From: a virus
Taxonomy: Duplodnaviria > Heunggongvirae > Uroviricota > Caudoviricetes
Strand: one strand, 5' to 3'
DNA: 45,778 bases
Virus record (IMG/VR): IMGVR_UViG_2740892271_000013
Positions 3,141-45,778 of the stretch are shown piece after piece. Each line of letters starts with the position of its first letter. Within the stretch, counting starts at the first letter, position 1. The notes below the pieces were generated by a model, which ran no database searches, was not told the DNA's origin, and was given only the letters and a program-made list of their open reading frames with translations. A program made the translations under genes and the position numbers.

Positions 3141-3296
3141 GGGATGGGGCAGGTTTTTCCTCTTGCGCATGCAAGGGCGGCTCTGATAATGAACAGTAAT
3201 ATTTTACTGTTGAGCTTATGCTCACTGATCCTGCCGGGCAGGATGTTCAACGGTTCCAATATATCCTGCCCCTTCCGCTTTTAAAAAGGATCTTTT
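3141..3296 (+). ncRNA. Structured 5' leader / candidate RT-associated non-coding RNA with repeated GGCAGG/CCTGCC motif
   Basis: GGGGCAGG (3146-3153), palindrome ATCCTGCCgGGCAGGAT (3228-3244), ATCCTGCCCC (3263-3272) and small hairpins (CAGTAA/TTACTG 3194-3209); no ORF of 60 aa or more; immediately upstream of the membrane-protein and RT genes. Confidence 0.3.
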
Positions 3297-3848
3297 ATGC
3301 ATGACAATATTTGGTTTACATATAAAGCACGTATCCAAGCGCACCATCGACTAGAATGGCTTGAAAAACACTCTCAATTTATCCTCGTTTGGTATGCTAT
3401 ATTGAGTGCGGTACTTTCAATTGTAACGTTGCGATTTCCAAAGGTTCTAGGAGATAATACAGATGTCGTTGCGGCGATACTTTCAGTGGCTCTACTGGGT
3501 ATTTCTCTGATCGTATCTAACCTAGATTTTCGTGGTCGAGCAATAGCCATGAGAAGGAATTATATTGCACTACAGCGACTCTATTTTGACATTACCACCA
3601 GTCAACAGTTATCTCTTGAACAGAAAGAAAAATATTTTAATTTGCTCAATGAGGTTGAGAATCACCGTGACATAGATGATAAAATTTCAAGGGTAACTCA
3701 AGTTGGACTTAAGACGAGGATCCCCACACAAAAAGAAAAAATAATTGTTATTTTATGGATATTACTTCGAATATTTATTACTGCCGCACTTTATATACTC
3801 CCATTAATATATCTTTGGATTGACTATGACTGCAAGCAGAATTTTTAA
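3297..3848 (+). CDS. Small membrane protein with three predicted TM helices (SLATT-like effector candidate), overlaps the RT gene
   Basis: 183 aa; hydrophobic helices FILVWYAILSAVLSIVTL, VVAAILSVALLGISLIVSNL and IIVILWILLRIFITAALYILPLIYLWI, charged helical middle; AAGGA ribosome-binding site; 29-nt overlap with RT start. Confidence 0.6.
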   Translation: MHDNIWFTYKARIQAHHRLEWLEKHSQFILVWYAILSAVLSIVTLRFPKVLGDNTDVVAAILSVALLGISLIVSNLDFRGRAIAMRRNYIALQRLYFDITTSQQLSLEQKEKYFNLLNEVENHRDIDDKISRVTQVGLKTRIPTQKEKIIVILWILLRIFITAALYILPLIYLWIDYDCKQNF

Positions 3849-5196
3849 AAAGTCATTCTCGAAAAAAAATCTTCTAAAAGTATACTCTGAAAAAATCAAA
3901 GAATCAGGAGCGATTGGCATAGATCGGATTCGCCCATCAAAACTTGATTTGACAATAAAAAATGAGATCACTTTCATTTTTGAAAAGGTTAATTCTGGCA
4001 ATTACAAATTTACAGCATATAAAGAAAAATTAATATCTAAAGGCGCTAACTCTACACCCAGACAGATTTCCATACCAACTGCTAGGGACAGAATTACTCT
4101 TAGAGCTCTCTGTGAATGCCTTACGGAAATATATCCTAAGTCCAGATTAAAACTACCACATACAGTAATTGACTCATTGAAAGAAGCATTAAACAACAGT
4201 CTATATGCTGAATATGCAAAAATAGATCTTAAAAGTTTCTATCCTTCAATTGAACATAAATTGATAATTAATGCAATAAAAAATAAAATTAGAAAAAAAG
4301 AAATTAGACAGTTAATAACATCATCATTAATCGTGCCTACTGTAAGTGGAACCACAGGAAGCAAAGGTATCCCTAATAATACCAGAGGAGTACCTCAGGG
4401 ATTAGCGATATCAAACATTTTAGCTGAAATATCACTATCTAATTTCGATGATGAAATCAATAAAATGCATGACATATGGTACATGCGATACGTTGATGAC
4501 ATTCTTATTTTAACACCAAAATATCAAGCAACAAAAATAGCTTCTCATATCATTGATAAGCTTCAATCATTAAATTTAAACCCACATCCATTAAATGAAG
4601 AGAACTCAAAATCCAAAGTAGGCAGCTTGGATGAAAGTTTCAACTTTTTGGGCTACCACATAAAAAATCGAGAATTATTGATAAAACATGAGAGCATTCT
4701 TAGATTTGAGTCATCCTTAGCAAAAATTTTTACTGCATATAGACACGCTCTACTACAAGCTAAAAATAAGCGCGATAAAGAACGAGCTGTTGCATATTGT
4801 CAGTGGAAACTAAATCTTAGAATTACGGGATGTGTGTTTGAAGGTAAACGATTGGGATGGGTATCGTACTTCTCACAAATAACGTCAACAGCTCAACTTC
4901 GAGCTGTTAATCATACGATCAATAATCTTATCCGCCGATTCGGCCTTTCATCAGAAATAAAACCAAAGTCTTTGATTAAAACTTTCTATGAACTCCGCAG
5001 GGGTAGAGCGGAGACTTTTAAATACATACCTAACTTTGACAATCTACATATATCTCAGAAACGAGAAATTGTTTCTATGTGGATAGGGAAAGAGAATGAA
5101 AAAAAACTTAGCAATAGTGAAATAGAGAGAAAATTTAAATTTAAAATTGCGAAATCAGTAAAAGAGCTTGAAGAGGACATTTCAGGGATATCATAG
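3820..5196 (+). CDS. Reverse transcriptase (retron/Abi/UG-like, not intron-type)
   Basis: 458 aa; RT motifs seen directly: KIDLKSFYPSI (motif A), GVPQGLAISNILAEI (motif B), YMRYVDDILIL (YVDD, motif C), FNFLGYHI (motif E); about 160-aa C-terminal extension of unknown function. Confidence 0.85.
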   Translation: MTMTASRIFKKSFSKKNLLKVYSEKIKESGAIGIDRIRPSKLDLTIKNEITFIFEKVNSGNYKFTAYKEKLISKGANSTPRQISIPTARDRITLRALCECLTEIYPKSRLKLPHTVIDSLKEALNNSLYAEYAKIDLKSFYPSIEHKLIINAIKNKIRKKEIRQLITSSLIVPTVSGTTGSKGIPNNTRGVPQGLAISNILAEISLSNFDDEINKMHDIWYMRYVDDILILTPKYQATKIASHIIDKLQSLNLNPHPLNEENSKSKVGSLDESFNFLGYHIKNRELLIKHESILRFESSLAKIFTAYRHALLQAKNKRDKERAVAYCQWKLNLRITGCVFEGKRLGWVSYFSQITSTAQLRAVNHTINNLIRRFGLSSEIKPKSLIKTFYELRRGRAETFKYIPNFDNLHISQKREIVSMWIGKENEKKLSNSEIERKFKFKIAKSVKELEEDISGIS

Positions 5197-5290
5197 ATAT
5201 GTAATCCATTAAATCCTTTATATATAAAGCAATAAACACACTATTTAAATTCACAAATCAGCCGCAGTATCCTGCCATGACAAGTTGCTG

Positions 5291-5792
5291 NNNNNNNNNN
5301 NNNNNNNNNNNNNNNNNNNNNNNNNNNNNNNNNNNNNNNNNNNNNNNNNNNNNNNNNNNNNNNNNNNNNNNNNNNNNNNNNNNNNNNNNNNNNNNNNNNN
5401 NNNNNNNNNNNNNNNNNNNNNNNNNNNNNNNNNNNNNNNNNNNNNNNNNNNNNNNNNNNNNNNNNNNNNNNNNNNNNNNNNNNNNNNNNNNNNNNNNNNN
5501 NNNNNNNNNNNNNNNNNNNNNNNNNNNNNNNNNNNNNNNNNNNNNNNNNNNNNNNNNNNNNNNNNNNNNNNNNNNNNNNNNNNNNNNNNNNNNNNNNNNN
5601 NNNNNNNNNNNNNNNNNNNNNNNNNNNNNNNNNNNNNNNNNNNNNNNNNNNNNNNNNNNNNNNNNNNNNNNNNNNNNNNNNNNNNNNNNNNNNNNNNNNN
5701 NNNNNNNNNNNNNNNNNNNNNNNNNNNNNNNNNNNNNNNNNNNNNNNNNNNNNNNNNNNNNNNNNNNNNNNNNNNNNNNNNNNNNNNNNNNN
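5291..5792. other. Run of N (assembly gap or masked sequence)
   Basis: 502 consecutive n characters. Confidence 1.
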
Positions 5793-6104: not shown

Positions 6105-9100
6105 TATGCAAGCCTCACAATATAGTTAAATGCGATGTTTTTGACGGTGTTTTCCGCGTTACCCGCAGCGTTAACGGTGATGGTATGTCCATGTGAACCA
6201 ATCGCAACGGAGTGCGTATGAGCACCAATACCGACAGTATGCGCGTGTGCACCTGCAGATGCTGCTGTGCCGGACAGTGAGTGGCTATGATTACCATCTG
6301 TACTGGTATTCGCTAACCACCCCGTAGACATACCTACTGAGCCTTGTACACCCCAGGTATTTTGACCTGAGCTTGTATAACCATATTGATAAGTATCTTT
6401 AAAAACACTGGGGTTAAATCGACGGCCATCTCTATGGCTGTGATTACCAGCTGCATTCGTGCTGCCACTTAAACTATGGGTATGCGCACCAGTGTTATTC
6501 GTGGATTTAGTGCCGTAATCAAACGACGATGTGGTTTTCGTCCCCAAATCCGTACTGGATGCGCTGGCGCTGTGGGTATGCGATTTAATGCCGTCCTGTT
6601 CCTGAGACAATACGGCCCGACCACTGGCAGGTTTGCCCTTAATCGTCCAGCCACGCATATCAGGGATCACACCTGACGGATAAACGGCTGCAAGTTTCGG
6701 GTAAGCAGATTTGTCAAAAGTCTGTCCCTGCATCAGGGCATAACCAGACGGAACGGTATCTGATGGCCACGGGATTGGTGCACCGACTGGGTAGCTTTCT
6801 GGTGGAAGATTTTTCGAGGTATAAACTTCTGCCCAGTCTTCCTCAAAACCATAACCGTCTCTTGAAGAACGGTAGAACAGACCACCATTTCTGTAATGCG
6901 CCTTCATCTGCAAGGTCCGGCAACTTCCGACTCCGGTATAGAAGTTAACCAGAATATAGCTGTTGCCAGAGCGGGTGACATTGTAAGCGCCTGATTCGGC
7001 ATTCCATGGAACGCCACCATCCGCATCGGCATATGTATCCGTTGCCCTTCTGGCAAAAGCAGCCACATGCGCGGCGGTTAAAGTAATATCTTTGGAACCA
7101 TCAAACTCAACACCAGAAACCAGTCTTGGCGTTTGCAGCTTTGTTGCTGTCAATGCGTTACCGTTCAGACTTGCAGACAGTTTGGTTCCAATAACCAGTT
7201 CGCCGGTTGCGTTATCAATAACAAACGGTCTTAATGTATTCCAGCCACCATAAACATCACCTTGATTGGTAAGCAGCAGGTAAGTTTTAGCGCCATCATT
7301 ACGCCATAATGCACCATACTCCCCACCTATCATTCGAATCTGATTACCACCACGCGCTACAATTTCGTCTGTGGCAAAAAGTTTTTTGCACGACAAGTTA
7401 TCGTTAACGATTAACGAATGAGACTCATAAAAACCACGCCCACTCTTAAAATCAAGGATAACGTCCGCCGCGATACATTCAGTCGCCGGATTTGTTGCCC
7501 CAAACTTATAGGTCGTATCATTAACAACGAGATCAGCACCAGGTGCGGATATTGACAGGCCATCTTCGAGAAACGCAAAAACAGGGAAAGCAGCGCCATC
7601 AACATAGAACACAGAGCGCAAATCATCGCCCTTATTACTCATCATTATTGAGTGGATGGCTCGTTCATTGTTTTGATATTGCCAGAACATTCCATAAGCA
7701 TAACGCCCCCTGTCAGTCCAGCCACCAGGCATAACAAATCCGTTAAACTCGCAGTTATTCATCGGATCGCCTGCGATTCGCGTTGCCGTGGTGATAATGA
7801 CCCTTGATGCCAGTTCGCTTACTGAGCCAGCAGAACGCATAACAACAACAGGGTAATATTTTCCAGATGTTGCACCTGCAGGAGCGTTAACCCGCACATA
7901 ACGCATACCACGCTTATCAGCAAAGTCTGTTTTACTGACCGCGTTAATGTTGTTCAGGAAGCGTCCCTTATCGGGTATATCAGCGCCGTTCTGGTCTTTC
8001 TGCAGACGTTTCTCAGCATTGTCATTGGCTGCTTTTACTGCCTTTGGCGTTGCCGCCAGCGTTTCAGACGTGCTATTAGTCGCACTACTGAGCTGTACTA
8101 TCCCCTTTTTCGTCGTGCTCGCATCCTCAAGCGCCACGGCGGATGCAATATCCTCTGCACGTTTTGCCGCTGTCTCGGCGCGCGTTGCCGCGGATTCCGC
8201 CGTACTTTTGCTCTGTGCTGCCGCCGTCGCACTGCCAGCAGCCTCTGTCGCCTTCGTGGATGCTGTCGTGGCGCTGCCCTTCGCTGCGGACGCTTGTCTG
8301 GTCGCCTCATCTTTTGAAGCAGACGCCGATGATGCCGATGACGCCGCCGAACTGGCGGACGATGCGGCAGCCGTTTTTGAGGATTCTGCGCTGGTCTCCG
8401 ACGCTTTCGCGTTCGTCTCCGATGTCTTCGCTGCGGAAGCAGACCTCGCTGCTGCACTGGCCTGTTCAGTGGCTTCGCCAGCCTTCGTTGTGGCTGTTGA
8501 AGCGGACGATGCGGCGCTTTCTGCCGATTTTCCGGCGGCGCTAGCACTGGCTGAGGCCTGCCCGGCACTTGTTGACGCTGCACTGGCAGACGACGCAGCC
8601 GCTGTTTTTGAGCCTGCTGCTGCGGAGGCACTCTGTGCTGCTGCCGTTTCAGAGGACTTAGCGTTTGTCTCAGACGTCTTTGCCGCCTTCGCGGAATTTC
8701 CTGCCGCCGTTGCCGAGGAAGCGGCATTACTGGCGCTCGAAGCTGCGCTCGTTTCTGATAATTTTGCCGCCTCTTTTGAAGCCGACGCATCTCTGGCTGA
8801 GGTGGCTGCTTCTGACGCTTTCGTGGTCGCGGTGGATGCAGAAGTGGCAGCTGATTGTTGTGACGCTGCCGCATTCGTTTCTGACGTTTTCGCCGCACCG
8901 GCACTGGTGGCCGCCGCGCTTTTTGAGGACTCTGCAGCGGCAGCACTTTTTGATGCTTCAGTGGCCTTTGCTGATGCCGTTCCTGCGCTGGAAGACGCAG
9001 ACTGAGCCGACGAAGCGGCCTGTCCGGCTGACNNNNNNNNNNNNNNNNNNNNNNNNNNNNNNNNNNNNNNNNNNNNNNNNNNNNNNNNNNNNNNNNNNNN

Positions 9101-9572
9101 NNNNNNNNNNNNNNNNNNNNNNNNNNNNNNNNNNNNNNNNNNNNNNNNNNNNNNNNNNNNNNNNNNNNNNNNNNNNNNNNNNNNNNNNNNNNNNNNNNNN
9201 NNNNNNNNNNNNNNNNNNNNNNNNNNNNNNNNNNNNNNNNNNNNNNNNNNNNNNNNNNNNNNNNNNNNNNNNNNNNNNNNNNNNNNNNNNNNNNNNNNNN
9301 NNNNNNNNNNNNNNNNNNNNNNNNNNNNNNNNNNNNNNNNNNNNNNNNNCGGCATGTGACGGCGGGAATCCTTCCACCAACAGAATAACGCTGTACTGAC
9401 CGTACTCAACGTCCATGCTGTAACGCCCGGCTTCATCCGGATTTTCTGAGGCCAGCGTGTTCACCACCACCGTGGTGCTGTTACGTTTTGCTTTCAGCTG
9501 GATTGTGCAGTTCTGTACCGGTTTTCCTGTGCCGTCTTTCAGTACACCTGAAATCTTTACTGCCATATTCAC
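6104..9572 (-). CDS. stf: Side tail fibre protein (lambda Stf / Rac StfR-like), interrupted by an N run
   Basis: N-terminus [39 protein letters not shown], long Ala/Ser/Thr-rich shaft repeats, His-rich C-terminal region ending [31 protein letters not shown]; frame break across 9032-9349 is a gap artefact. Confidence 0.85.
9032..9349. other. Run of N (assembly gap or masked sequence) inside stf
   Basis: 318 consecutive n characters. Confidence 1.
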
Positions 9573-15068: not shown

Positions 15069-15806
15069 TTACTGCGAAAGTTTGTTAATGGAAAGGAAGC
15101 CGCCAAAGTTGCCGACGTTATTGCGAAACTTACAGCCGCTCAGGCATTTGCTGCATTTATCCTTCGTGATATCGGACGTCGGCTGATCATATTCATCCGC
15201 GACCGCCGGACCGTGATAACCGCACTCATCGCCGCGATAGGTCCAGGTGCAGGTGTTGGCCAGCATGATACGTCCCGGAAAAACGGCACCGTCCGTTTCC
15301 GTCGGCGTGGACAGTACAAAGGAGGCACTGACCGCGCTCAGTTCGCTGCACTGCTCGATGCGCCAGCGGCTGATCACCTCCTGCTCCGGATCGGCGTCAC
15401 TGTTTCCGTTGACGAAGTTCACCGCATCCAGAAAACGGGCGTAAACCTTACGCCGGACCACCGTTCCGCCGACCAGACTCTGCAGATCTTCCGCCATCCC
15501 GGTGACCATGCCGTGCAGGTTAGAAACCGTCAGTGTCGGACGGGCAGCACTGCCCTTGCCGTTCAGTTCAANNNNNNNNNNNNNNNNNNNNNNNNNNNNN
15601 NNNNNNNNNNATCCCGTCCCCTGAATGGGATACGCCTGATACTGTCGCCCCTGCCAGGTGACCGGCTCACCTTTTTCGTTCTGCTCATTACAGAAAAAAT
15701 AACGTTCTCCACCGACCTCTGTCAGATCGATTTCCCAGAGCACCACCTGGGCTGACTGAGTGAGGCGTGTCGTCTCATGATGTGTTTCCTGTGGAATATC
15801 CTGCAT
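15069..15806 (-). CDS. L: Minor tail protein L
   Basis: 245 aa resembling lambda gpL including C-terminal Cys cluster (CSKCLSGCKF); contains a 39-nt N run. Confidence 0.8.
   Translation of the reverse strand: MQDIPQETHHETTRLTQSAQVVLWEIDLTEVGGERYFFCNEQNEKGEPVTWQGRQYQAYPIQGTGXXXXXXXXXXXXXXELNGKGSAARPTLTVSNLHGMVTGMAEDLQSLVGGTVVRRKVYARFLDAVNFVNGNSDADPEQEVISRWRIEQCSELSAVSASFVLSTPTETDGAVFPGRIMLANTCTWTYRGDECGYHGPAVADEYDQPTSDITKDKCSKCLSGCKFRNNVGNFGGFLSINKLSQ
15572..15610. other. Run of N inside gene L
   Basis: 39 consecutive n characters. Confidence 1.
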
Positions 15807-30632: not shown

Positions 30633-30944
30633 NNNNNNNNNNNNNNNNNNNNNNNNNNNNNNNNNNNNNNNNNNNNNNNNNNNNNNNNNNNNNNNNNNNN
30701 NNNNNNNNNNNNNNNNNNNNNNNNNNNNNNNNNNNNNNNNNNNNNNNNNNNNNNNNNNNNNNNNNNNNNNNNNNNNNNNNNNNNNNNNNNNNNNNNNNNN
30801 NNNNNNNNNNNNNNNNNNNNNNNNNNNNNNNNNNNNNNNNNNNNNNNNNNNNNNNNNNNNNNNNNNNNNNNNNNNNNNNNNNNNNNNNNNNNNNNNNNNN
30901 NNNNNNNNNNNNNNNNNNNNNNNNNNNNNNNNNNNNNNNNNNNN
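30633..30944. other. Run of N inside the holin region
   Basis: 312 consecutive n characters. Confidence 1.
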
Positions 30945-38915: not shown

Positions 38916-39744
38916 GACGATGCCCTCCGCTGATATTCAGGAGACGGTGAATATGAAAATTAGCCTTATCCGCCAGACGAATACGTTCAGCTTGCAAGTT
39001 AAGAAGGGTTTCTACCAGAACCTGATGTGCCTGCGGATCCGAAAGAGTTACCTTGCGCAGAGCACGTAGTGCAGTTGTTACATAACTGAGTTTATGTAAG
39101 TCTTCATCATTCAGACGAGTGAGGGCTGGGACAGTAGCCATGATGGCAGCCTCCTTGATCGGTGAAATACTTCCACCACCGGAAACGCCAATTTCGCTGG
39201 TGGTGAACTGAACGGGGTTGGCGTAACCGGTGATCAAGGAAACCGGCGCATCTTTCGATGCCCCCGCCCAGCCCACCATAACTTTGATGTGAGCAAATGC
39301 GGACGATAAAAAAGACGCTGGCGCGTCATATATCGCCTTGATCAATTCCAGGACGCCAATCCCGGCACCCGCTTTATAAGGTGCCTGAACAGTGTAACGT
39401 CCCGGAATGGCAGAATCAATGTGCTGGTGGTCCTTCACACTCAACAAAATCACGCCTGAATTTCCACAAAGGACTAAAGCACTCATGCGGGTAGTCTTTG
39501 CGAAGATAGATAACGCGCTGTGTTTCTGGCTCCCAACGAATAACATGAACATAAAGTCCTCTTCCGTCACGAAACCAGCGGTTAAGTTCCTGCACAACTC
39601 GCCCCCCACAGTCAGGTAAAGTTCTCTGTGGTTACTTACAGCCAGGTGATTTGGTAATCTGCATTCATGCCGTAACAACAGGTGTTCAGCGACGCTGACC
39701 ACCAGCTGTTGCGACAAACGGTTATTTGCCGTTAAACTGTTCAT
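38908..39744 (-). CDS. Hypothetical protein of unknown family in the early-right operon
   Basis: 278-aa ORF between cII-like and O-like genes; Gly-rich segments (AGAGIGV, SGGGS); no recognised motif. Confidence 0.45.
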   Translation of the reverse strand: MNSLTANNRLSQQLVVSVAEHLLLRHECRLPNHLAVSNHRELYLTVGGELCRNLTAGFVTEEDFMFMLFVGSQKHSALSIFAKTTRMSALVLCGNSGVILLSVKDHQHIDSAIPGRYTVQAPYKAGAGIGVLELIKAIYDAPASFLSSAFAHIKVMVGWAGASKDAPVSLITGYANPVQFTTSEIGVSGGGSISPIKEAAIMATVPALTRLNDEDLHKLSYVTTALRALRKVTLSDPQAHQVLVETLLNLQAERIRLADKANFHIHRLLNISGGHRHA

Positions 39745-40626: not shown

Positions 40627-41301
40627 ATGAAAACAGTCCATGACATCCGGCGGTCTAACGCCAGAAAACTGAGAGATGGTGTTGGCGGGAATTCTTCCTT
40701 TGCCACCATGATTGATCGCGAGCCAACCCAGACCAGCAGGTTTATGGGAGATGGTGCAACTAAAAATATCGGTGACAGCATGGCACGGCACATCGAAAAA
40801 TGTTTCGACCTGCCTGTCGGATGGCTTGATCAAGAACACCAGACAACGAACATCACAAAAAAACCTGACGTTTCAATCACTAACAAACAAATAACGTTAG
40901 TCCCTGTCATATCATGGGTACAGGCCGGAGCATGGAAAGAAGTTGGCTATTCTGAGGTTGATTTGAGCACAGCAGAAACTTATCCCTGCCCTGTACCCTG
41001 TGGCGAAATGACTTATATCTTGCGGGTGATTGGTGATTCAATGATTGATGAGTACCGCCCGGGAGACATGATTTTTGTTGATCCTGAAGTCCCTGCCTGC
41101 CACGGTGACGACGTTATTGCATTGATGCACGATACAGGCGAAACCACCTTCAAGCGGTTGATAGAAGATGGAACACAGCGTTATCTCAAAGCATTAAACC
41201 CAAACTGGCCTGAGCCTTACATTAAGATTAACGGTAATTGCTCTATAATTGGTACAGTGATTTTCTCAGGAAAACCAAGAAGATACATAATAAAGGCCTA
41301 A
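40627..41301 (+). CDS. cI: CI-like repressor (XRE-type helix-turn-helix plus S24 LexA-like peptidase domain)
   Basis: 224 aa; C-terminal autocleavage domain with Ser (VIGDSM) and Lys (TTFKRL); N-terminal helix-turn-helix. Confidence 0.8.
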   Translation: MKTVHDIRRSNARKLRDGVGGNSSFATMIDREPTQTSRFMGDGATKNIGDSMARHIEKCFDLPVGWLDQEHQTTNITKKPDVSITNKQITLVPVISWVQAGAWKEVGYSEVDLSTAETYPCPVPCGEMTYILRVIGDSMIDEYRPGDMIFVDPEVPACHGDDVIALMHDTGETTFKRLIEDGTQRYLKALNPNWPEPYIKINGNCSIIGTVIFSGKPRRYIIKA

Positions 41302-41312
41302 TCAATATTTAT

Positions 41313-41337
41313 AACCTGCTTCGGCAGGTTTTTTTAT
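41313..41337 (+). terminator. Rho-independent terminator downstream of cI
   Basis: ACCTGC-ttcg-GCAGGT followed by TTTTTTTAT. Confidence 0.65.
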
Positions 41338-41339
41338 AC

Positions 41340-41367
41340 TTGACAATGTACCTTTGGGATACATAAT
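41340..41367 (+). promoter_or_regulatory. PL-like early-left promoter (TTGACA-N16-CATAAT) with embedded operator
   Basis: -35 TTGACA 41340-41345, -10 CATAAT 41362-41367; spacer holds ATGTACCtttggGATACAT, a third copy of the immunity operator. Confidence 0.6.
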
Positions 41368-41805
41368 GTATCTAAAAGAAACACAGCACAGGCAAGATTA
41401 AACAAAATTTGGTTGTAACACGGCGTATGGCACATGCGTCGTTAGCGGTCTGGGGACGTTAAAGGGGACAATCCACTCCTTGCTCGGGCAAACAAACCAG
41501 GTAGCCGGAATGTGCAAGTCAATGATGATGCTGATAAGACGCCTAACCAGCGTGGCGATTCGGTTTGACGCCTGGGAAGAGACCAGGGTGCAACGATGAG
41601 GACATTTATGGAACCGCGACAAAGTGTGGTGCCGTAACTGGCTAAGTGCTCTCAGCGTTGTGGTGAATGCGCAGGCTGATGCGCGAAAGACATTGCAGCT
41701 AATGCGGAAAAGAGCTGTTCGGCGGGGCAATTAAACGCCCGTGAGAGTCTGAAATAACCGCAAGCCGGAGATCAGCACCGGTCACCACAACAGCCACTGC
41801 TTTGG

Positions 41806-41850
41806 CGGTACCAGTTTGTACACTTGCTTCCGGCTGGTACCGCTCTTTTT
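41806..41850 (+). terminator. Strong rho-independent terminator inside the early-left leader
   Basis: 9-bp stem CGGTACCAG/CTGGTACCG with 18-nt loop followed by CTCTTTTT. Confidence 0.55.
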
Positions 41851-41936
41851 ACAAAACAGAGAAGAGCATCACCGGACGACGGGCTCATAACCAAATCCAT
41901 CCGGGCGGCTGCCACCGCAGGTGTTCTTCTCTGTTT
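41851..41936 (+). promoter_or_regulatory. Long inverted repeat (16-bp arms) forming a large stem-loop just upstream of the first early-left gene
   Basis: ACAAAACAGAGAAGAG (41851-41866) pairs perfectly with CTCTTCTCTGTTTTGT (41921-41936); GC-rich 54-nt loop. Confidence 0.45.
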
Positions 41937-41987
41937 TGTGGAGAAACCAACCGACCTTGCAGGGTCGATATGATTAGGAGCAGCAAA

Positions 41988-42415: not shown

Positions 42416-43240
42416 ATGTCTCAGAACTTAGACGCAACCGCAATTAATCAAATCCATGCCCTTATTTCTGCTCAGGGTGTTAATGAAATTATCAGTAAGA
42501 TTGGTGCCGATGCTGTGGCATTGCCTGAGAATTTCCGCATTCATGATCTGGAAAAATTAAATTTAAATCGTTTCCGTTTCCGTGGTGCGCTTTCCACTGC
42601 CAGCATCGATGACTTTACTCGTTATTCTAAAGATCTTGCAGATGAAGGCACCCGCTGCTTTATCGATGCTGATAATATGCGTGCCGTCAGTGTTCTTAAC
42701 CTGGGTACTATTGATGAACCAGGTCACGCAGATAACACCGCCACTCTCAAACTGAAAAAGACAGCTCCGTTCTCTGCTCTGTTGTCTGTTAATGGCGAGC
42801 GTAACTCCCAGAAGTCACTGGCAGAATGGATTGAAGACTGGGCCGACTACCTTGTGGGCTTTGATGCTAATGGTGACGCCATTCAGGCAACCAAAGCGGC
42901 TGCGGCGATCCGTAAAATCACAATTGAAGCGAACCAGACCGCTGATTTTGAAGATAATGACTTCAGCGGCAAACGCTCCCTGATGGAGTCTGTCGAAGCG
43001 AAGACCAAAGACATTATGCCAGTGGCATTTGAATTTAAATGCGTTCCGTTTGAAGGTCTGAAAGAACGTCCGTTTAAATTACGCCTCAGCATTATCACTG
43101 GCGATCGTCCTGTACTGGTTCTGCGCATTATTCAGCTGGAAGCGGTACAGGAAGAAATGGCTAACGAATTTCGTGATCTGCTTGTTGAGAAATTCAAAGA
43201 CAGCAAAGTAGAAACCTTTATTGGTACTTTCACCGCCTGA
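42416..43240 (+). CDS. Early-left protein, YfdQ-like (DUF2303-type, uncharacterised)
   Basis: 274-aa ORF immediately downstream of the YfdP-like gene; size and neighbourhood match the CPS-53-type pair. Confidence 0.5.
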
Positions 43241-43253
43241 TTTCATTACTGCA

Positions 43254-43274
43254 AATGCCCCTGCGGGGGCATTT
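43254..43274 (+). terminator. Hairpin (weak terminator) after the YfdQ-like gene
   Basis: AAATGCCCC-tgcg-GGGGCATTT; no long U-tract. Confidence 0.35.
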
Positions 43275-43416
43275 ACGGAAGCGATAATTTTAACTATTGC
43301 CGCCCCTATAAAGAACCATTAAACAATAACGTGACGTAGCTATTGATAGTAAATGAAGCACTTGCAAAATAATTGCATTGCGTATATATACACACATGTG
43401 TTGTATTACAGCGATA

Positions 43417-44211
43417 ATGGTAAAGCAAATGATTAACTCTGAAGCAATTGAGCAACTAATGTGGCTATGGTCCTTATTTGACATTAAATTCTTATCTATT
43501 CTTGCCGCTGCCTTCACTATATATTTTGGCGTGCAAAAAATATCAAAAAAGGTGACAGTGTCGTATTCAGCAAATGCAAGTAGAATATATGACATGCATA
43601 TATCAACCATAATCCTGAATAATAAAAGAGATAATGCAATTGCTATATCTTCAATCAATATGGAGGTTGAAGGTAAAGGGATACTACAAGTTATTAAATT
43701 TGACTCCCCTCTTCTTTTAAAGAACTATGATTCTTTAAAAGTTGAACCACCAAAATTTAGCAGCCTTTACAATAATGATGGCGTAGTTAAGTTAGATATT
43801 TCTGATAAGTTTCATTTTTATATAATCACGACATCTGGAGATGAAATTAAATGTATTTCTGAAAATAAATATGTAGCACCAAACATGGAAAACAAAATAG
43901 CTACAGACATAAGAAAATTTAATGGCATTGTCTTAACAAACAGAATGTCTTATATTTTTTTCTATGCAAATGACAACGGAGAGAAATACTGCATAATAGA
44001 TGTTTCATTGTTCATAAATGGTGACAACCCATTTCATTTTAATTTTTTAAAAGAAGATGAATTAAGAGATTTTTCTAGCATCCTTATTAGTTACGGATAT
44101 CACCAACAGTTTAAAAGTTATGCATTGTTTAAAATAGACAACCATCTTGCTCCTTCTTTGGTTTTAAATAAATCAATGATAGAAAATAATATTATTGAAA
44201 TGAATAAGTAA
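43417..44211 (+). CDS. AT-rich moron: membrane-anchored protein of unknown function (candidate superinfection-exclusion or abortive-infection factor)
   Basis: About 265 aa; N-terminal TM helix LMWLWSLFDIKFLSILAAAFTIYFGV then Asn/Lys/Ile-rich domain; GC content far below the flanks; own TTGCAA-N17-TATATA promoter candidate (43362-43390); start codon uncertain (43396, 43417 or 43429). Confidence 0.55.
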   Translation: MVKQMINSEAIEQLMWLWSLFDIKFLSILAAAFTIYFGVQKISKKVTVSYSANASRIYDMHISTIILNNKRDNAIAISSINMEVEGKGILQVIKFDSPLLLKNYDSLKVEPPKFSSLYNNDGVVKLDISDKFHFYIITTSGDEIKCISENKYVAPNMENKIATDIRKFNGIVLTNRMSYIFFYANDNGEKYCIIDVSLFINGDNPFHFNFLKEDELRDFSSILISYGYHQQFKSYALFKIDNHLAPSLVLNKSMIENNIIEMNK

Positions 44212-44247
44212 CTCACCGGGTGCAGCCGGTTATGATGGAGAAATGAT

Positions 44248-44529
44248 ATGAATACCTTGTTTTTACTGATGGCTGAATTCAATACCCCAAACATTGAACT
44301 CTCAGCAGTTAGTCAAAAATACTTTGGTATGAGTCCAGCCACAGCAGAAGCAAAAGCAAACGCTTGTAAGTTGCCTGTACCTACATATCGCATCGGTACA
44401 TCACAAAAAGCAAAACGTTGCATCAATATTCAGGATCTTGCGGAATACATAGACAAAAGACGAGAAGAAGGACGTATCGAGTGGGAACAGGTCAGAACAG
44501 GCAAACAGAAGGGCAAAGAACATCACTAA
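44248..44529 (+). CDS. Small DNA-binding protein, PrtN/excisionase-like candidate
   Basis: 93 aa with GGAG ribosome-binding site; basic C-terminus; weak resemblance to excisionase/PrtN-type winged-helix proteins. Confidence 0.4.
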   Translation: MNTLFLLMAEFNTPNIELSAVSQKYFGMSPATAEAKANACKLPVPTYRIGTSQKAKRCINIQDLAEYIDKRREEGRIEWEQVRTGKQKGKEHH

Positions 44530-44559
44530 AGAAAAAACCCGCCTAAAGGCGGGTTTTCA
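44530..44559. terminator. Bidirectional rho-independent terminator
   Basis: AAAAAA-CCCGCC-taaa-GGCGGG-TTTTC; serves converging plus and minus strand units. Confidence 0.6.
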
Positions 44560-44575
44560 AAAAGCACCAGCTATG

Positions 44576-44749
44576 ATCATGCTGCTTTGCGACGACGAAG
44601 CTTACCCTGCTGCTCTTTACCAGAGACAGTAGCGTGAGTGAACGCATTAGGAGCAGCCTTCATCAGAACTTCAACAGCAGCACCCATACCTGCGAATGCT
44701 TTCATTGTGTCGAACTTAACCTGTGGCTTGGTTGCTTTTTGATCTTCCA
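44576..44749 (-). CDS. Small hypothetical protein (57 aa), last gene of the minus-strand cassette
   Basis: Hand-translated MEDQKATKPQVKFDTMKAFAGMGAAVEVLMKAAPNAFTHATVSGKEQQGKLRRRKAA; GGAG ribosome-binding site 6-7 nt upstream; followed by the terminator; below the ORF-track size cutoff. Confidence 0.45.
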
Positions 44750-44789
44750 TAGAAAACTCCAGAAGCTATACCGAAACAATTCCTGTTGT

Positions 44790-45209
44790 TTACTCATCAT
44801 CAATAGATGATACGCAATATTTATTTTTAAATTTAAGGTTCTTTGGCGTAACTTCATCAGATATATCAAAACCGTCCAGAATTCTATTGAATGTAGCTTC
44901 TGGCATATCATCATGAACGGAAATCTCACCCGATCGCTGCTTTCTAACCATGTTATCCACTCGCCAAATTATAGCTTCAGCGTAAACAACATAACTTGGA
45001 TGCTTGATAAAGCGATGATCACCAGAATTCAAGACGCAAGACGGATCGTGGGGGACACCATCCTTGATACTAGAAATATTAACAACTAAAACACAATAAC
45101 AATCGTTAACGGGGTAATAAACAGGATCATTACAAATCACATGAAGATGATTGCATGGCCCAGTTGGGGCAAGCACAGTTCCTTTCCTGTATGGCTGATA
45201 ATCCGTCAT
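44790..45209 (-). CDS. Hypothetical protein, candidate toxin partner of the Panacea-like gene
   Basis: 139-aa ORF whose ATG overlaps the upstream stop (ATGA); Cys/His-containing, no recognised family. Confidence 0.5.
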   Translation of the reverse strand: MTDYQPYRKGTVLAPTGPCNHLHVICNDPVYYPVNDCYCVLVVNISSIKDGVPHDPSCVLNSGDHRFIKHPSYVVYAEAIIWRVDNMVRKQRSGEISVHDDMPEATFNRILDGFDISDEVTPKNLKFKNKYCVSSIDDE

Positions 45210-45778
45210 GATAATTGCAAAGAAAATTCCTTAAGTTTCTGAGATTCTTCCATTTTGCCAATTATACGATTAGCCTCATCCTCGCTTTTACCCTCACTGA
45301 TCAGCATTTCTTTCAGGTCTATAGGCTTACGAGAATTGCCAGGATTGTGCCACTCTGGACAAACGCTTTCTAAATGCGTCATGTTTGCGAGATCAAATCG
45401 GTTCATATGCCCATACAGAGAATAGATTTCATCTAAAATCCGGATATCTGCACGGCTCAACTCATCAAAGACCTCGTCTGCATCCATTTCCCTCGGATCT
45501 GAACGCAACAACACATCATGCCCGTTCGTCTCTATCAGGTTGTACCAGTAGTCACCAATACCTTCAGCCTTACCACGAATCAAGTTCAGCGTATTCGACA
45601 TGACTGGACCAAATTTCATAGAGTAAAGGCTATCTTCGCCGATCATCCTGCCATGCTTCAAAATCGACTTGCGGTTAGACAGATAGAGCAGCTTCATCAA
45701 TTTCAGATATGCCATGCGCCCACCTCGCTTAAGAAGTAGGTATGCAGCCATTTGAGCTACTTTTTCTTCGCAAAACAT
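45206..45778 (-). CDS. Panacea-domain (DUF4065, SocA/GepA-like) antitoxin candidate; may be 5'-truncated by the window edge
   Basis: 190 aa; N-terminal pattern AYLKLMKLLYLSNRKSILKHGRMIGEDSLYSMKFGPVMSNTL fits the Panacea signature (L-KL-KLLYL ... GPV); ORF reaches the last base of the window. Confidence 0.55.
   Translation of the reverse strand: MFCEEKVAQMAAYLLLKRGGRMAYLKLMKLLYLSNRKSILKHGRMIGEDSLYSMKFGPVMSNTLNLIRGKAEGIGDYWYNLIETNGHDVLLRSDPREMDADEVFDELSRADIRILDEIYSLYGHMNRFDLANMTHLESVCPEWHNPGNSRKPIDLKEMLISEGKSEDEANRIIGKMEESQKLKEFSLQLS

Follow-up and report, generated by a model that had tools for sequence, protein, structure and literature searches.

An AT-rich replacement cassette beside the excisionase gene of an Escherichia coli lambdoid prophage encodes an uncharacterised, predicted membrane-anchored protein that may act in phage exclusion

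The stretch of DNA considered here, IMG/VR virus record IMGVR_UViG_2740892271_000013 (45,778 nucleotides (nt), hereafter the window), is a lambdoid prophage of Escherichia coli of about 44 kb integrated at dusA, and DNA identical to it is present in many complete E. coli chromosomes. Our subject is a short AT-rich cassette near its right end, carrying a single gene for a membrane protein. The right arm of the prophage reads, on the + strand, yfdP, yfdQ, the cassette gene and a PrtN-family excisionase gene. The conserved left neighbour of the slot is yfdQ (42416..43240, +; DUF2303, PF10065, E 8e-93), while xis (44248..44529, +; PF11112, E 3e-23; phrog_1300, 'excisionase') lies downstream of the cassette gene and is predicted to be co-transcribed with it. 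Alignment by blastn to mEp460 and Lys8385Vzw placed the breakpoints at 43289/43290 and 44215/44216, delimiting a cassette of 926 bp (43290..44215, +) made up of a 139-bp 5' non-coding part and one gene. In both relatives the same slot between yfdQ and xis holds about 3.6 kb of early 'ea'-type genes (HD hydrolase, Eae, Ea22-like, DUF551 and exonuclease), so the cassette is a replacement rather than a simple insertion; no relative with an empty slot between yfdQ and xis was found.

The cassette differs sharply in composition from its surroundings. In 300-bp windows, guanine-cytosine (GC) content was 0.28-0.32 across 43400-44300 and about 0.45-0.50 on either side. The lowest 800-bp window free of undetermined bases (N) starts at 43401 and has a GC content of 0.292, about 3 standard deviations under the mean of 0.502 (standard deviation 0.067); runs of N at 5291-5792, 9033-9349, 15572-15610 and 30633-30944 (1,170 bases in total) skew naive GC profiles. 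A preliminary description, made from the letters of the sequence, had reported a sharp GC drop here, and the sliding-window profile confirms it as the most extreme low of the window. The gene itself has a GC content of 0.290 and a GC content at third codon positions (GC3) of 0.264, a composition alien to the prophage, where the GC3 of other genes is 0.31-0.67 (yfdQ 0.425, xis 0.351, structural genes 0.41-0.67). The full cassette was found in 99 of 5,426 E. coli genomes (about 2% of complete genomes), always chromosomal and in single copy, and in 99 of the 741 genomes that have this xis region; its carriers are human, animal and environmental isolates, and the distribution is patchy. No Rfam match to an RNA family was found in or near it. 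The discrete 926-bp boundaries, the occurrence in 99 of 741 genomes and the alien composition support the view that 43290-44215 is a horizontally acquired cassette of foreign cargo, as the preliminary description had proposed for its origin.

The gene (43429..44211, +) encodes an uncharacterised single-pass membrane protein of 260 amino acids (aa; WP_047654657.1, phrog_14996). Its frame opens at a TTG at 43378 (277 aa), and the annotation pipeline PGAP starts the protein at an ATG at 43429 (260 aa). Close homologues all begin M-I/L-N at the position of ATG 43429, and the N-terminus MINxK is conserved; on the strength of the annotation and the homologue N-termini, we take ATG 43429 rather than TTG 43378 as the start. 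The product had been described as rich in Asn, Lys and Ile, and its composition agrees (Ile 12.7%, Asn 9.2%, Lys 8.5%). AlphaFold returned a confident two-domain model (predicted local distance difference test score 80 for the whole protein and 95 for the C-terminal domain), in which a helix (residues 4-38) is followed by a beta-sandwich (about 43-141), a linker modelled with low confidence and an alpha/beta domain (156-259). The predicted transmembrane helix spans residues ~12-35 (43462..43533, +), with the best hydrophobic 19-mer at residues 13-31 (mean Kyte-Doolittle hydropathy 1.68), and together with the modelled helix this bears out the single N-terminal membrane anchor that had been suggested. 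The immunoglobulin-like beta-sandwich domain (residues ~43-141; 43555..43851, +) contains the family motifs NK(R/K)D(N/K) and P(P/L)L(I/L)LK. The C-terminal alpha/beta domain (residues ~156-259; 43894..44205, +) is the fastest-evolving part of the protein and has no counterpart among solved folds.

Charge distribution around the helix points to an orientation. A short acidic N-terminus is predicted to lie outside and a K-rich flank inside: K and R residues in the 15 positions after the helix exceed those before it in 68 of 81 family members (mean 2.54 versus 0.68), and the topology analysis found neither a signal-peptide n-region nor a second hydrophobic segment. The positive-inside rule predicts an N-out/C-in protein with its bulk in the cytoplasm. 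K37 alone is invariant across the broad family, with N65, P94, K98, S111, Y179, G194 and N205 nearly so. The protein shows no features of an enzyme, adhesin or transporter. No catalytic-looking residue is conserved across the family, and no acidic or histidine constellation pointing to catalysis was seen; the protein most likely works by binding rather than catalysis.

The family to which this protein belongs is broader than fast searches indicate. The protein matches phrog_14996 (function unknown) with E 2e-178 over residues 1-260, and Pfam, NCBIfam, PADLOC and PHROGs offered no named family for the query and 60 relatives, nor did a profile search of the PDB return a match (best E 2.7), which agrees with the earlier failure to name a family. 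A word-indexed search retrieved only 11 clusters, from E. coli, Citrobacter and Klebsiella. When 1.84 billion representatives were searched exhaustively with a profile, 221 proteins were recovered at E <= 0.001, each representing a cluster at 50% identity; named members come from Raoultella, Providencia, Pseudomonas, Acinetobacter and a Syntrophobacteraceae metagenome-assembled genome. The checks of remote homology and structure that had been proposed thus led to a large unnamed family and a confident model. Nearly all full-length members are 235-280 aa long and align over most of their length, and both length and the order of transmembrane helix, beta-sandwich and alpha/beta domain are kept down to about 20% identity. 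Among E. coli alleles, the ratio of non-synonymous to synonymous substitution rates (dN/dS) was 0.36-0.40, versus 0.03-0.06 for yfdQ, and the C-terminal domain takes 14 of the 20 non-synonymous changes (omega 0.61). The gene was intact in 18 of 19 sampled copies; the damage seen was an IS1 insertion in one genome and two frameshifts in one decayed prophage copy. This is thus a genuine gene, maintained under selection.

The right boundary of the cassette falls on a conserved element. A stem-loop in the leader of xis, ACCGG-GTGCAG-CCGGT (44215..44230, +), is followed by GGAG at 44239-44242 and the xis ATG at 44248, and the general form of the motif is CCGG(N)TGCAGCCGG followed by the Shine-Dalgarno sequence GGAG. 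The stem-loop is also present in mEp460 and Lys8385Vzw and thus does not derive from the cassette; in L002/L003 it lies at about 4001. It also stands upstream of unrelated excisionase genes in Citrobacter (L008, 8788) and at L044 (6833), and IMG/VR contig L039 carries a compensatory stem variant (ATCGG...CCGAT, at about 6787). At least 120 IMG/VR contigs contain the motif (those listed include L047-L166), and among the 120 listed, 93 have an open reading frame (ORF) of 40-170 aa that starts 3-13 nt after GGAG. Among these listed matches, three families of ORFs match reference excisionases (Exc-type, PrtN-type and a Citrobacter 68-aa type), while 41 ORFs match none of the three types; small proteins of at least two other recurrent types are among them. 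On its right side the cassette breaks off at the 5' edge of the stem-loop, and three homologues located in different integration modules end there as well; AT-rich DNA lies just before the hairpin at only 5 of the 106 loci that have it. The element resembles a conserved leader of xis or the boundary of a module, and it may act as a translational or processing element of xis or as a recombination site at the edge of the module. Its position at the cassette edge and before unrelated excisionase families may help explain how cargo is shuffled beside integration modules. At three IMG/VR loci (L050, L054 and L061), another AT-rich gene (GC 0.34 versus 0.45-0.50 for the locus), encoding a multi-pass membrane protein of 277 aa, fills the same slot, with its end 15 nt short of the hairpin.

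Two further hairpins had been described as bracketing the gene. The first, AAATGCCCC-TGCG-GGGGCATTT, follows the yfdQ stop codon (43253..43274; -19.4 kcal/mol, z -3.7 versus shuffled sequences); it is inside the segment common to mEp460 and Lys8385Vzw and thus outside the cassette, no U-tract follows it, and the terminator scan does not call it. The second (44533..44558), after xis, is a bidirectional terminator-like hairpin that folds at -16.2 kcal/mol on the + strand (z -5.1; 44525-44570 stretch) and at -18.4 kcal/mol on the - strand, the stronger direction and the one called by the terminator scan, where it ends the convergent 57-aa, 139-aa and Panacea genes. Both hairpins therefore exist and fold better than shuffled sequences, but both belong to the conserved backbone, being found also in phages that lack the cassette, and since the foreign segment is 43290-44215 they enclose the gene together with xis and not the gene alone.

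Two sets of promoter-like sequences bear on how the gene might be expressed. Within the 5' region of the cassette (43290..43428, +), a consensus scan identified weak sigma-70-like hexamers, TTGATA-16-CAAAAT at 43343-43370 and TACACA-18-GATAAT at 43389-43418 (each 9/12), which could constitute a promoter of its own. This 139-nt region differs by only 1-3 substitutions among alleles whose coding regions differ by 4-7%. Farther upstream, directly after the repressor-gene terminator (41313-41330), is a pL-like promoter, TTGACA-16-CATAAT (41340..41372, +; 11/12), with a perfect 15-bp palindrome, GATACATAATGTATC, over its -10 hexamer (41358-41372). Its hexamer site (41340-41367) is the strongest promoter-like site of the right arm, and from its position we infer that it is a pL analogue heading yfdP-yfdQ-cassette-xis. 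When we looked for repeats of the palindrome as repressor operators, we found just copies with 3 mismatches, at chance frequency. Between this promoter and yfdP (ATG 41988), a GC-rich (~0.53) stretch of about 600 nt (41400-41985) contains unannotated ORFs only (49, 47 and 110 aa); it may serve as a leader, as a nut-like region or as an RNA element.

Relatives of the gene occupy cargo slots in a range of mobile elements. The loci examined are mostly those of closer relatives (a profile search with distant members contributed 3 proteins, and close alignment one genome locus). In Klebsiella, Citrobacter, Raoultella, Buttiauxella, Providencia, Pseudomonas and IMG/VR contigs, family genes are 14-20 GC points under their flanks, even in Pseudomonas prophage DNA of 53-55% GC; the exception is one metagenomic locus, at 4 points under its flanks. 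In P2-like prophages of Pseudomonas (L013 and L014), the family gene adjoins the portal gene GpQ, behind an AAA_16/NB-ARC/nSTAND-like ATPase, and in a P2-like prophage of Providencia (L020) it lies between ogr/GpQ and GpA. In Citrobacter it stands just before xis-int, both where an AlpA/Ash/primase satellite-like element ends and in CP4-like islands with CbtA/CbeA, and on contig L039 it directly precedes a lambda-type Exc/Int pair. Klebsiella, Raoultella and contig L042 carry the gene in a nin-like region after the replication genes. At locus L045 it is antisense to all four neighbours, so this copy is an independent transcription unit. Small Acinetobacter plasmids also bear the gene, on one of them behind an HNH_5-like gene and beside MazEF. 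The main defence hotspot of P2 is between GpA and GpQ and that of P4 is next to the integrase, and six of eight unknown-function loci at the main P4 satellite defence loci protected against phages (PMC13586616). Unrelated phages, satellites and plasmids carry the family in slots for cargo and defence, the kind of context in which defence genes are typically met.

Genes beside some of these relatives deserve mention in their own right. The Pseudomonas ATPase (455 aa; L013 6589-7959, L014 6584-7951) lies 41-49 nt upstream of the family member, is similarly low in GC and weakly matches the PADLOC candidate PDC-S59 (E ~1e-7); the two genes may form a two-gene system in that branch. Directly downstream of the Providencia member, in the GpA-GpQ hotspot, is a gene for a 361-aa protein (L020 8831-9916; GC 0.264) with a hydrophobic, possibly membrane-spanning N-terminus and no Pfam match, and since the compositions match, the two may travel together. 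A conserved partner gene was considered for the family as a whole and rejected, because no two of the upstream genes in Pseudomonas, Acinetobacter, Citrobacter and Providencia are related; no conserved two-gene system is evident.

Taken from its genomic context, the cassette gene product can be read as a mobile, non-enzymatic, membrane-anchored anti-phage or exclusion protein, a proposal in which our confidence stands about midway. Superinfection exclusion or lysogenic conversion, the roles favoured by the preliminary description, are plausible on the same grounds. In this proposal, the cassette is mobile cargo exchanged into the variable 'ea' slot, where it lies between yfdQ and the conserved xis leader hairpin, and its product, with a short periplasmic N-terminus, an inner-membrane helix, a cytoplasmic beta-sandwich and a fast-evolving alpha/beta domain, would interfere with incoming phage from its anchored position at the cytoplasmic face of the inner membrane. 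It might do so by direct exclusion, blocking genome entry or an early membrane-associated step as P22 SieA or a nuclease-less SNIPE would, or by sensing a phage protein and then perturbing or damaging the membrane, which would amount to abortive infection; these two modes are not separable from sequence alone. The fast-evolving C-terminal domain would be the likely specificity element. Expression would probably come by read-through from the repressor-controlled pL-like promoter after induction or infection, and the AT-rich 5' region of the cassette may also drive weak expression in the lysogen. Two neighbours count for a role in defence: the prophage's only other AT-rich island encodes a SLATT-domain protein and a UG17 reverse transcriptase, and a Panacea toxin-antitoxin pair adjoins xis.

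A number of observations weigh against this proposal. The hydropathy of the helix barely exceeds the usual threshold (1.68 against 1.6). No terminator was found in the 36 nt between the stop codon of the gene (44211) and the xis ATG (44248), where the sole stem is the 5-bp conserved leader hairpin, which folds no better than shuffled sequences (z -0.69) and lacks a T-run. The preliminary description had given the gene its own promoter candidate; promoter-like hexamers such as the two 9/12 sites are not enriched upstream of the gene (7 found versus 10.0 +/- 3.4 in shuffled sequences). Since the gene shares its orientation with the pL-like, repressor-controlled early operon and is not closed by its own terminator, it may stay unexpressed in the lysogen and function during lytic growth alone. 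DNA of 29% GC is, moreover, a typical target of H-NS silencing in E. coli. The Klebsiella and Raoultella copies, within the early-right operon, would fit a lytic-cycle accessory gene equally well. Searches for links to known defence genes also came back negative: PADLOC assigned 0 families to the query and gave two isolated, insignificant matches among 60 members, tblastn against 50,697 sequenced phage records found no relative, and the family accessions had no match in the literature (Brenes & Laub 2025 not included) or in the DefensePredictor supplements. In an hmmsearch, the family profile scored <= 0.1 bits against each of P22 SieA, SieB and gp17 and lambda SieB, RexA and RexB. What the preliminary description observed at this locus is largely right, but its label of a 'self-contained moron' is not supported: with backbone hairpins, no terminator of its own and an orientation shared with the early-left operon, the segment is instead a foreign cargo cassette.

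Several of these points recur in the main rival explanation, in which the gene has an accessory role early in the lytic cycle and is expressed solely from the pL-like operon once the prophage is induced or a cell infected. Its product would then serve the phage (for instance through a host membrane process, the timing of lysis and lysogeny, or the exclusion of competitors in lytic growth) and give no protection to the lysogen. The strand and operon position shared with yfdP, yfdQ and xis, behind an 11/12 promoter with a palindromic operator, accord with this explanation, as does the missing terminator before xis. So do the nature of the slot, which is an ea region (Ea22-like, Eae, DUF551, exonuclease) in mEp460 and Lys8385Vzw, and the Klebsiella and Raoultella homologues, which are co-directional between replication and nin genes. 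Read-through, however, cannot explain the antisense copy at L045 or the copies in the P2 GpA-GpQ hotspot, on non-phage plasmids and in CP4-like islands, and an alien GC content with patchy distribution would sooner be expected of conflict cargo than of a gene for phage development. We judge this explanation unlikely, if still a serious contender.

A second alternative, which we find doubtful, is that abortive infection takes two genes, of which this one supplies the membrane component while its partner is absent from this prophage; the E. coli copy would then be an orphan, inactive or dependent on a host factor. Elsewhere, an upstream protein of 430-480 aa would sense infection and activate the membrane protein. 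Candidates for such a protein are the low-GC, co-directional AAA_16/STAND-like ATPase of Pseudomonas with its weak PDC-S59 match, a 427-aa HNH_5-like protein encoded 67 nt upstream in Acinetobacter, and a 477-aa protein of no recognised family in Citrobacter. These upstream genes of different hosts share no homology, however, and neighbours in hotspots are often independent systems. No such partner is present in E. coli, Klebsiella, Raoultella, L039, L042 or L045 (the neighbours in the window are yfdQ and xis), and the E. coli gene, intact in nearly all sampled copies, is under the purifying selection described above.

Less probable again is a lysogenic conversion unrelated to defence, by which the protein would benefit the lysogen through a change in host physiology, for instance in envelope stress, transport or colonisation, and not act on phages. 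A membrane-anchored product of an AT-rich gene, spread patchily across human, animal and environmental isolates and lacking any recognisable defence domain, might be expected of such a function. Against it, most of the protein is predicted to lie in the cytoplasm, features of an enzyme, adhesin or transporter are absent, and the contexts of the family are mostly phage and satellite hotspots and toxin-antitoxin neighbours rather than virulence loci. That the gene is a chance ORF has negligible probability: AT-rich spacer DNA has few GC-rich stop-free constraints, and an antisense ORF of 122 aa does lie at 43290-43658, but conservation across 221 representatives in length and architecture, dN/dS < 1, confident structure predictions and a conserved start refute it.

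The exclusion or anti-phage proposal can be extended to the family as a whole, though more tentatively and with a minor chance of holding in full. Its members would be single-gene, non-enzymatic immunity proteins of the inner membrane that block or sense genome entry through a C-terminal recognition domain of unseen fold, and that spread as AT-rich cassettes among lambdoid and P2-like phages, satellites and plasmids, partly by means of the xis-leader hairpin as a recombination boundary. If the protein is indeed an exclusion or defence factor, its family has been missed by current catalogues (it has no Pfam, NCBIfam or PADLOC model, and its C-terminal domain no solved fold), and it would add, after SNIPE, a further case of immunity at the cytoplasmic face of the inner membrane, here free of a nuclease. 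As a small stand-alone gene that about 2% of complete E. coli genomes carry, it is cheap to test, and a lack of phenotype would make it one further AT-rich accessory gene.

The remainder of the prophage provides the setting for the cassette. Next to dusA (542-1579, -) is the integrase gene (1668-2765, +); the tail, head and terminase genes are on the - strand, and a LexA-family repressor gene (40627-41301) marks the immunity region. The second AT-rich island (3221-5290), just after the integrase, holds two ORFs (3297-3848, +, and 3820-5196, +) that encode the SLATT-domain protein (PADLOC RTasSLATT, E 1.5e-56) and a UG17-class defence-associated reverse transcriptase (DRT; E 1e-158), a pair recognised as a candidate DRT defence module. 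The runs of N mask sequence beside this module, in the tail-fibre region and near the lysis/late genes. Past the bidirectional terminator after xis are three - strand genes, the last of which runs off the end of the window: a conserved 57-aa gene (phrog_2741; 44577-44750, -), a 139-aa gene (phrog_19071) and a Panacea/SocA-domain gene (PF13274, E 2e-18). The latter two overlap by 4 nt (44790-45778, -) and look like a PanA-type toxin-antitoxin pair; in other dusA prophages the Panacea module is exchanged for different Panacea pairs. A C4 antisense RNA (82 bits) adjoins an isrK Hfq-binding RNA (64 bits) in Rfam searches (39196-39384, -), which places a P1/P7-type antirepressor-control RNA module within a lambdoid prophage.

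Comparison with known systems shows several partial likenesses. With classical lambdoid morons (Hendrix/Juhala definition; for example HK97 gp15) the cassette shares a segment of foreign composition between conserved genes and a membrane protein dispensable for phage growth, but it has no terminator of its own and a weak putative promoter, and it replaces genes rather than inserting between adjacent ones. The SieB proteins of lambda and P22 and lambda RexAB are likewise prophage-encoded, membrane-associated exclusion or abortive-infection functions in or beside the early-left region, with a GC content below the phage average; sieB, however, has a mapped promoter of its own that reads antisense to pL, and RexB is a multi-pass protein that works with RexA. 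P22 SieA is also a small prophage-encoded accessory protein with an N-terminal hydrophobic anchor, and its gene has a lower GC content than its phage (0.337 versus 0.471). It is proposed to act at the inner membrane against incoming phage DNA and is dispensable for phage growth. SieA differs in its length (164 aa), its annotated own promoter and its location in the immI region, whereas the cassette protein has 260 aa and two folded domains and is encoded in the early-left operon upstream of xis; the family profile shows no similarity to SieA (-0.7 bits). Homology to Sie, Rex or Ea proteins was rejected for want of profile similarity.

Further parallels lie in hotspot genes and in SNIPE. Like the unknown-function genes of the P2/P4 hotspots, the family has relatives in the P2 GpA-GpQ hotspot and in an integrase-adjacent, satellite-like slot, although the copy in the window belongs to a lambdoid phage; among Crouga, Bandua, Aernus, Toga, Reve and Hailong, none is described with the architecture of the cassette protein (PMC13586616). 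SNIPE differs in having DUF4041 and a GIY-YIG nuclease and in cleaving DNA, and neither domain was found in the cassette family (Pfam for the query and 60 members, PDB and conserved residues). PADLOC, whose documentation includes the PD-lambda systems, gave no match to the cassette protein. SNIPE (PD-lambda-1) is a single-gene system that acts at the site of genome injection, and its N-out, single-pass inner-membrane layout has been shown experimentally (PMC13190303). The cassette protein is predicted to share this layout of periplasmic N-terminus, one inner-membrane helix and cytoplasmic domains, and SNIPE offers a model for how an anchored, cytoplasm-facing protein can tell apart incoming phage DNA. 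AT-rich prophage cargo encoding a membrane protein is a familiar kind that probably has a role in conflict between phages; the family described here is itself uncharacterised, and reading its members in that light is a reasonable guess from context alone.

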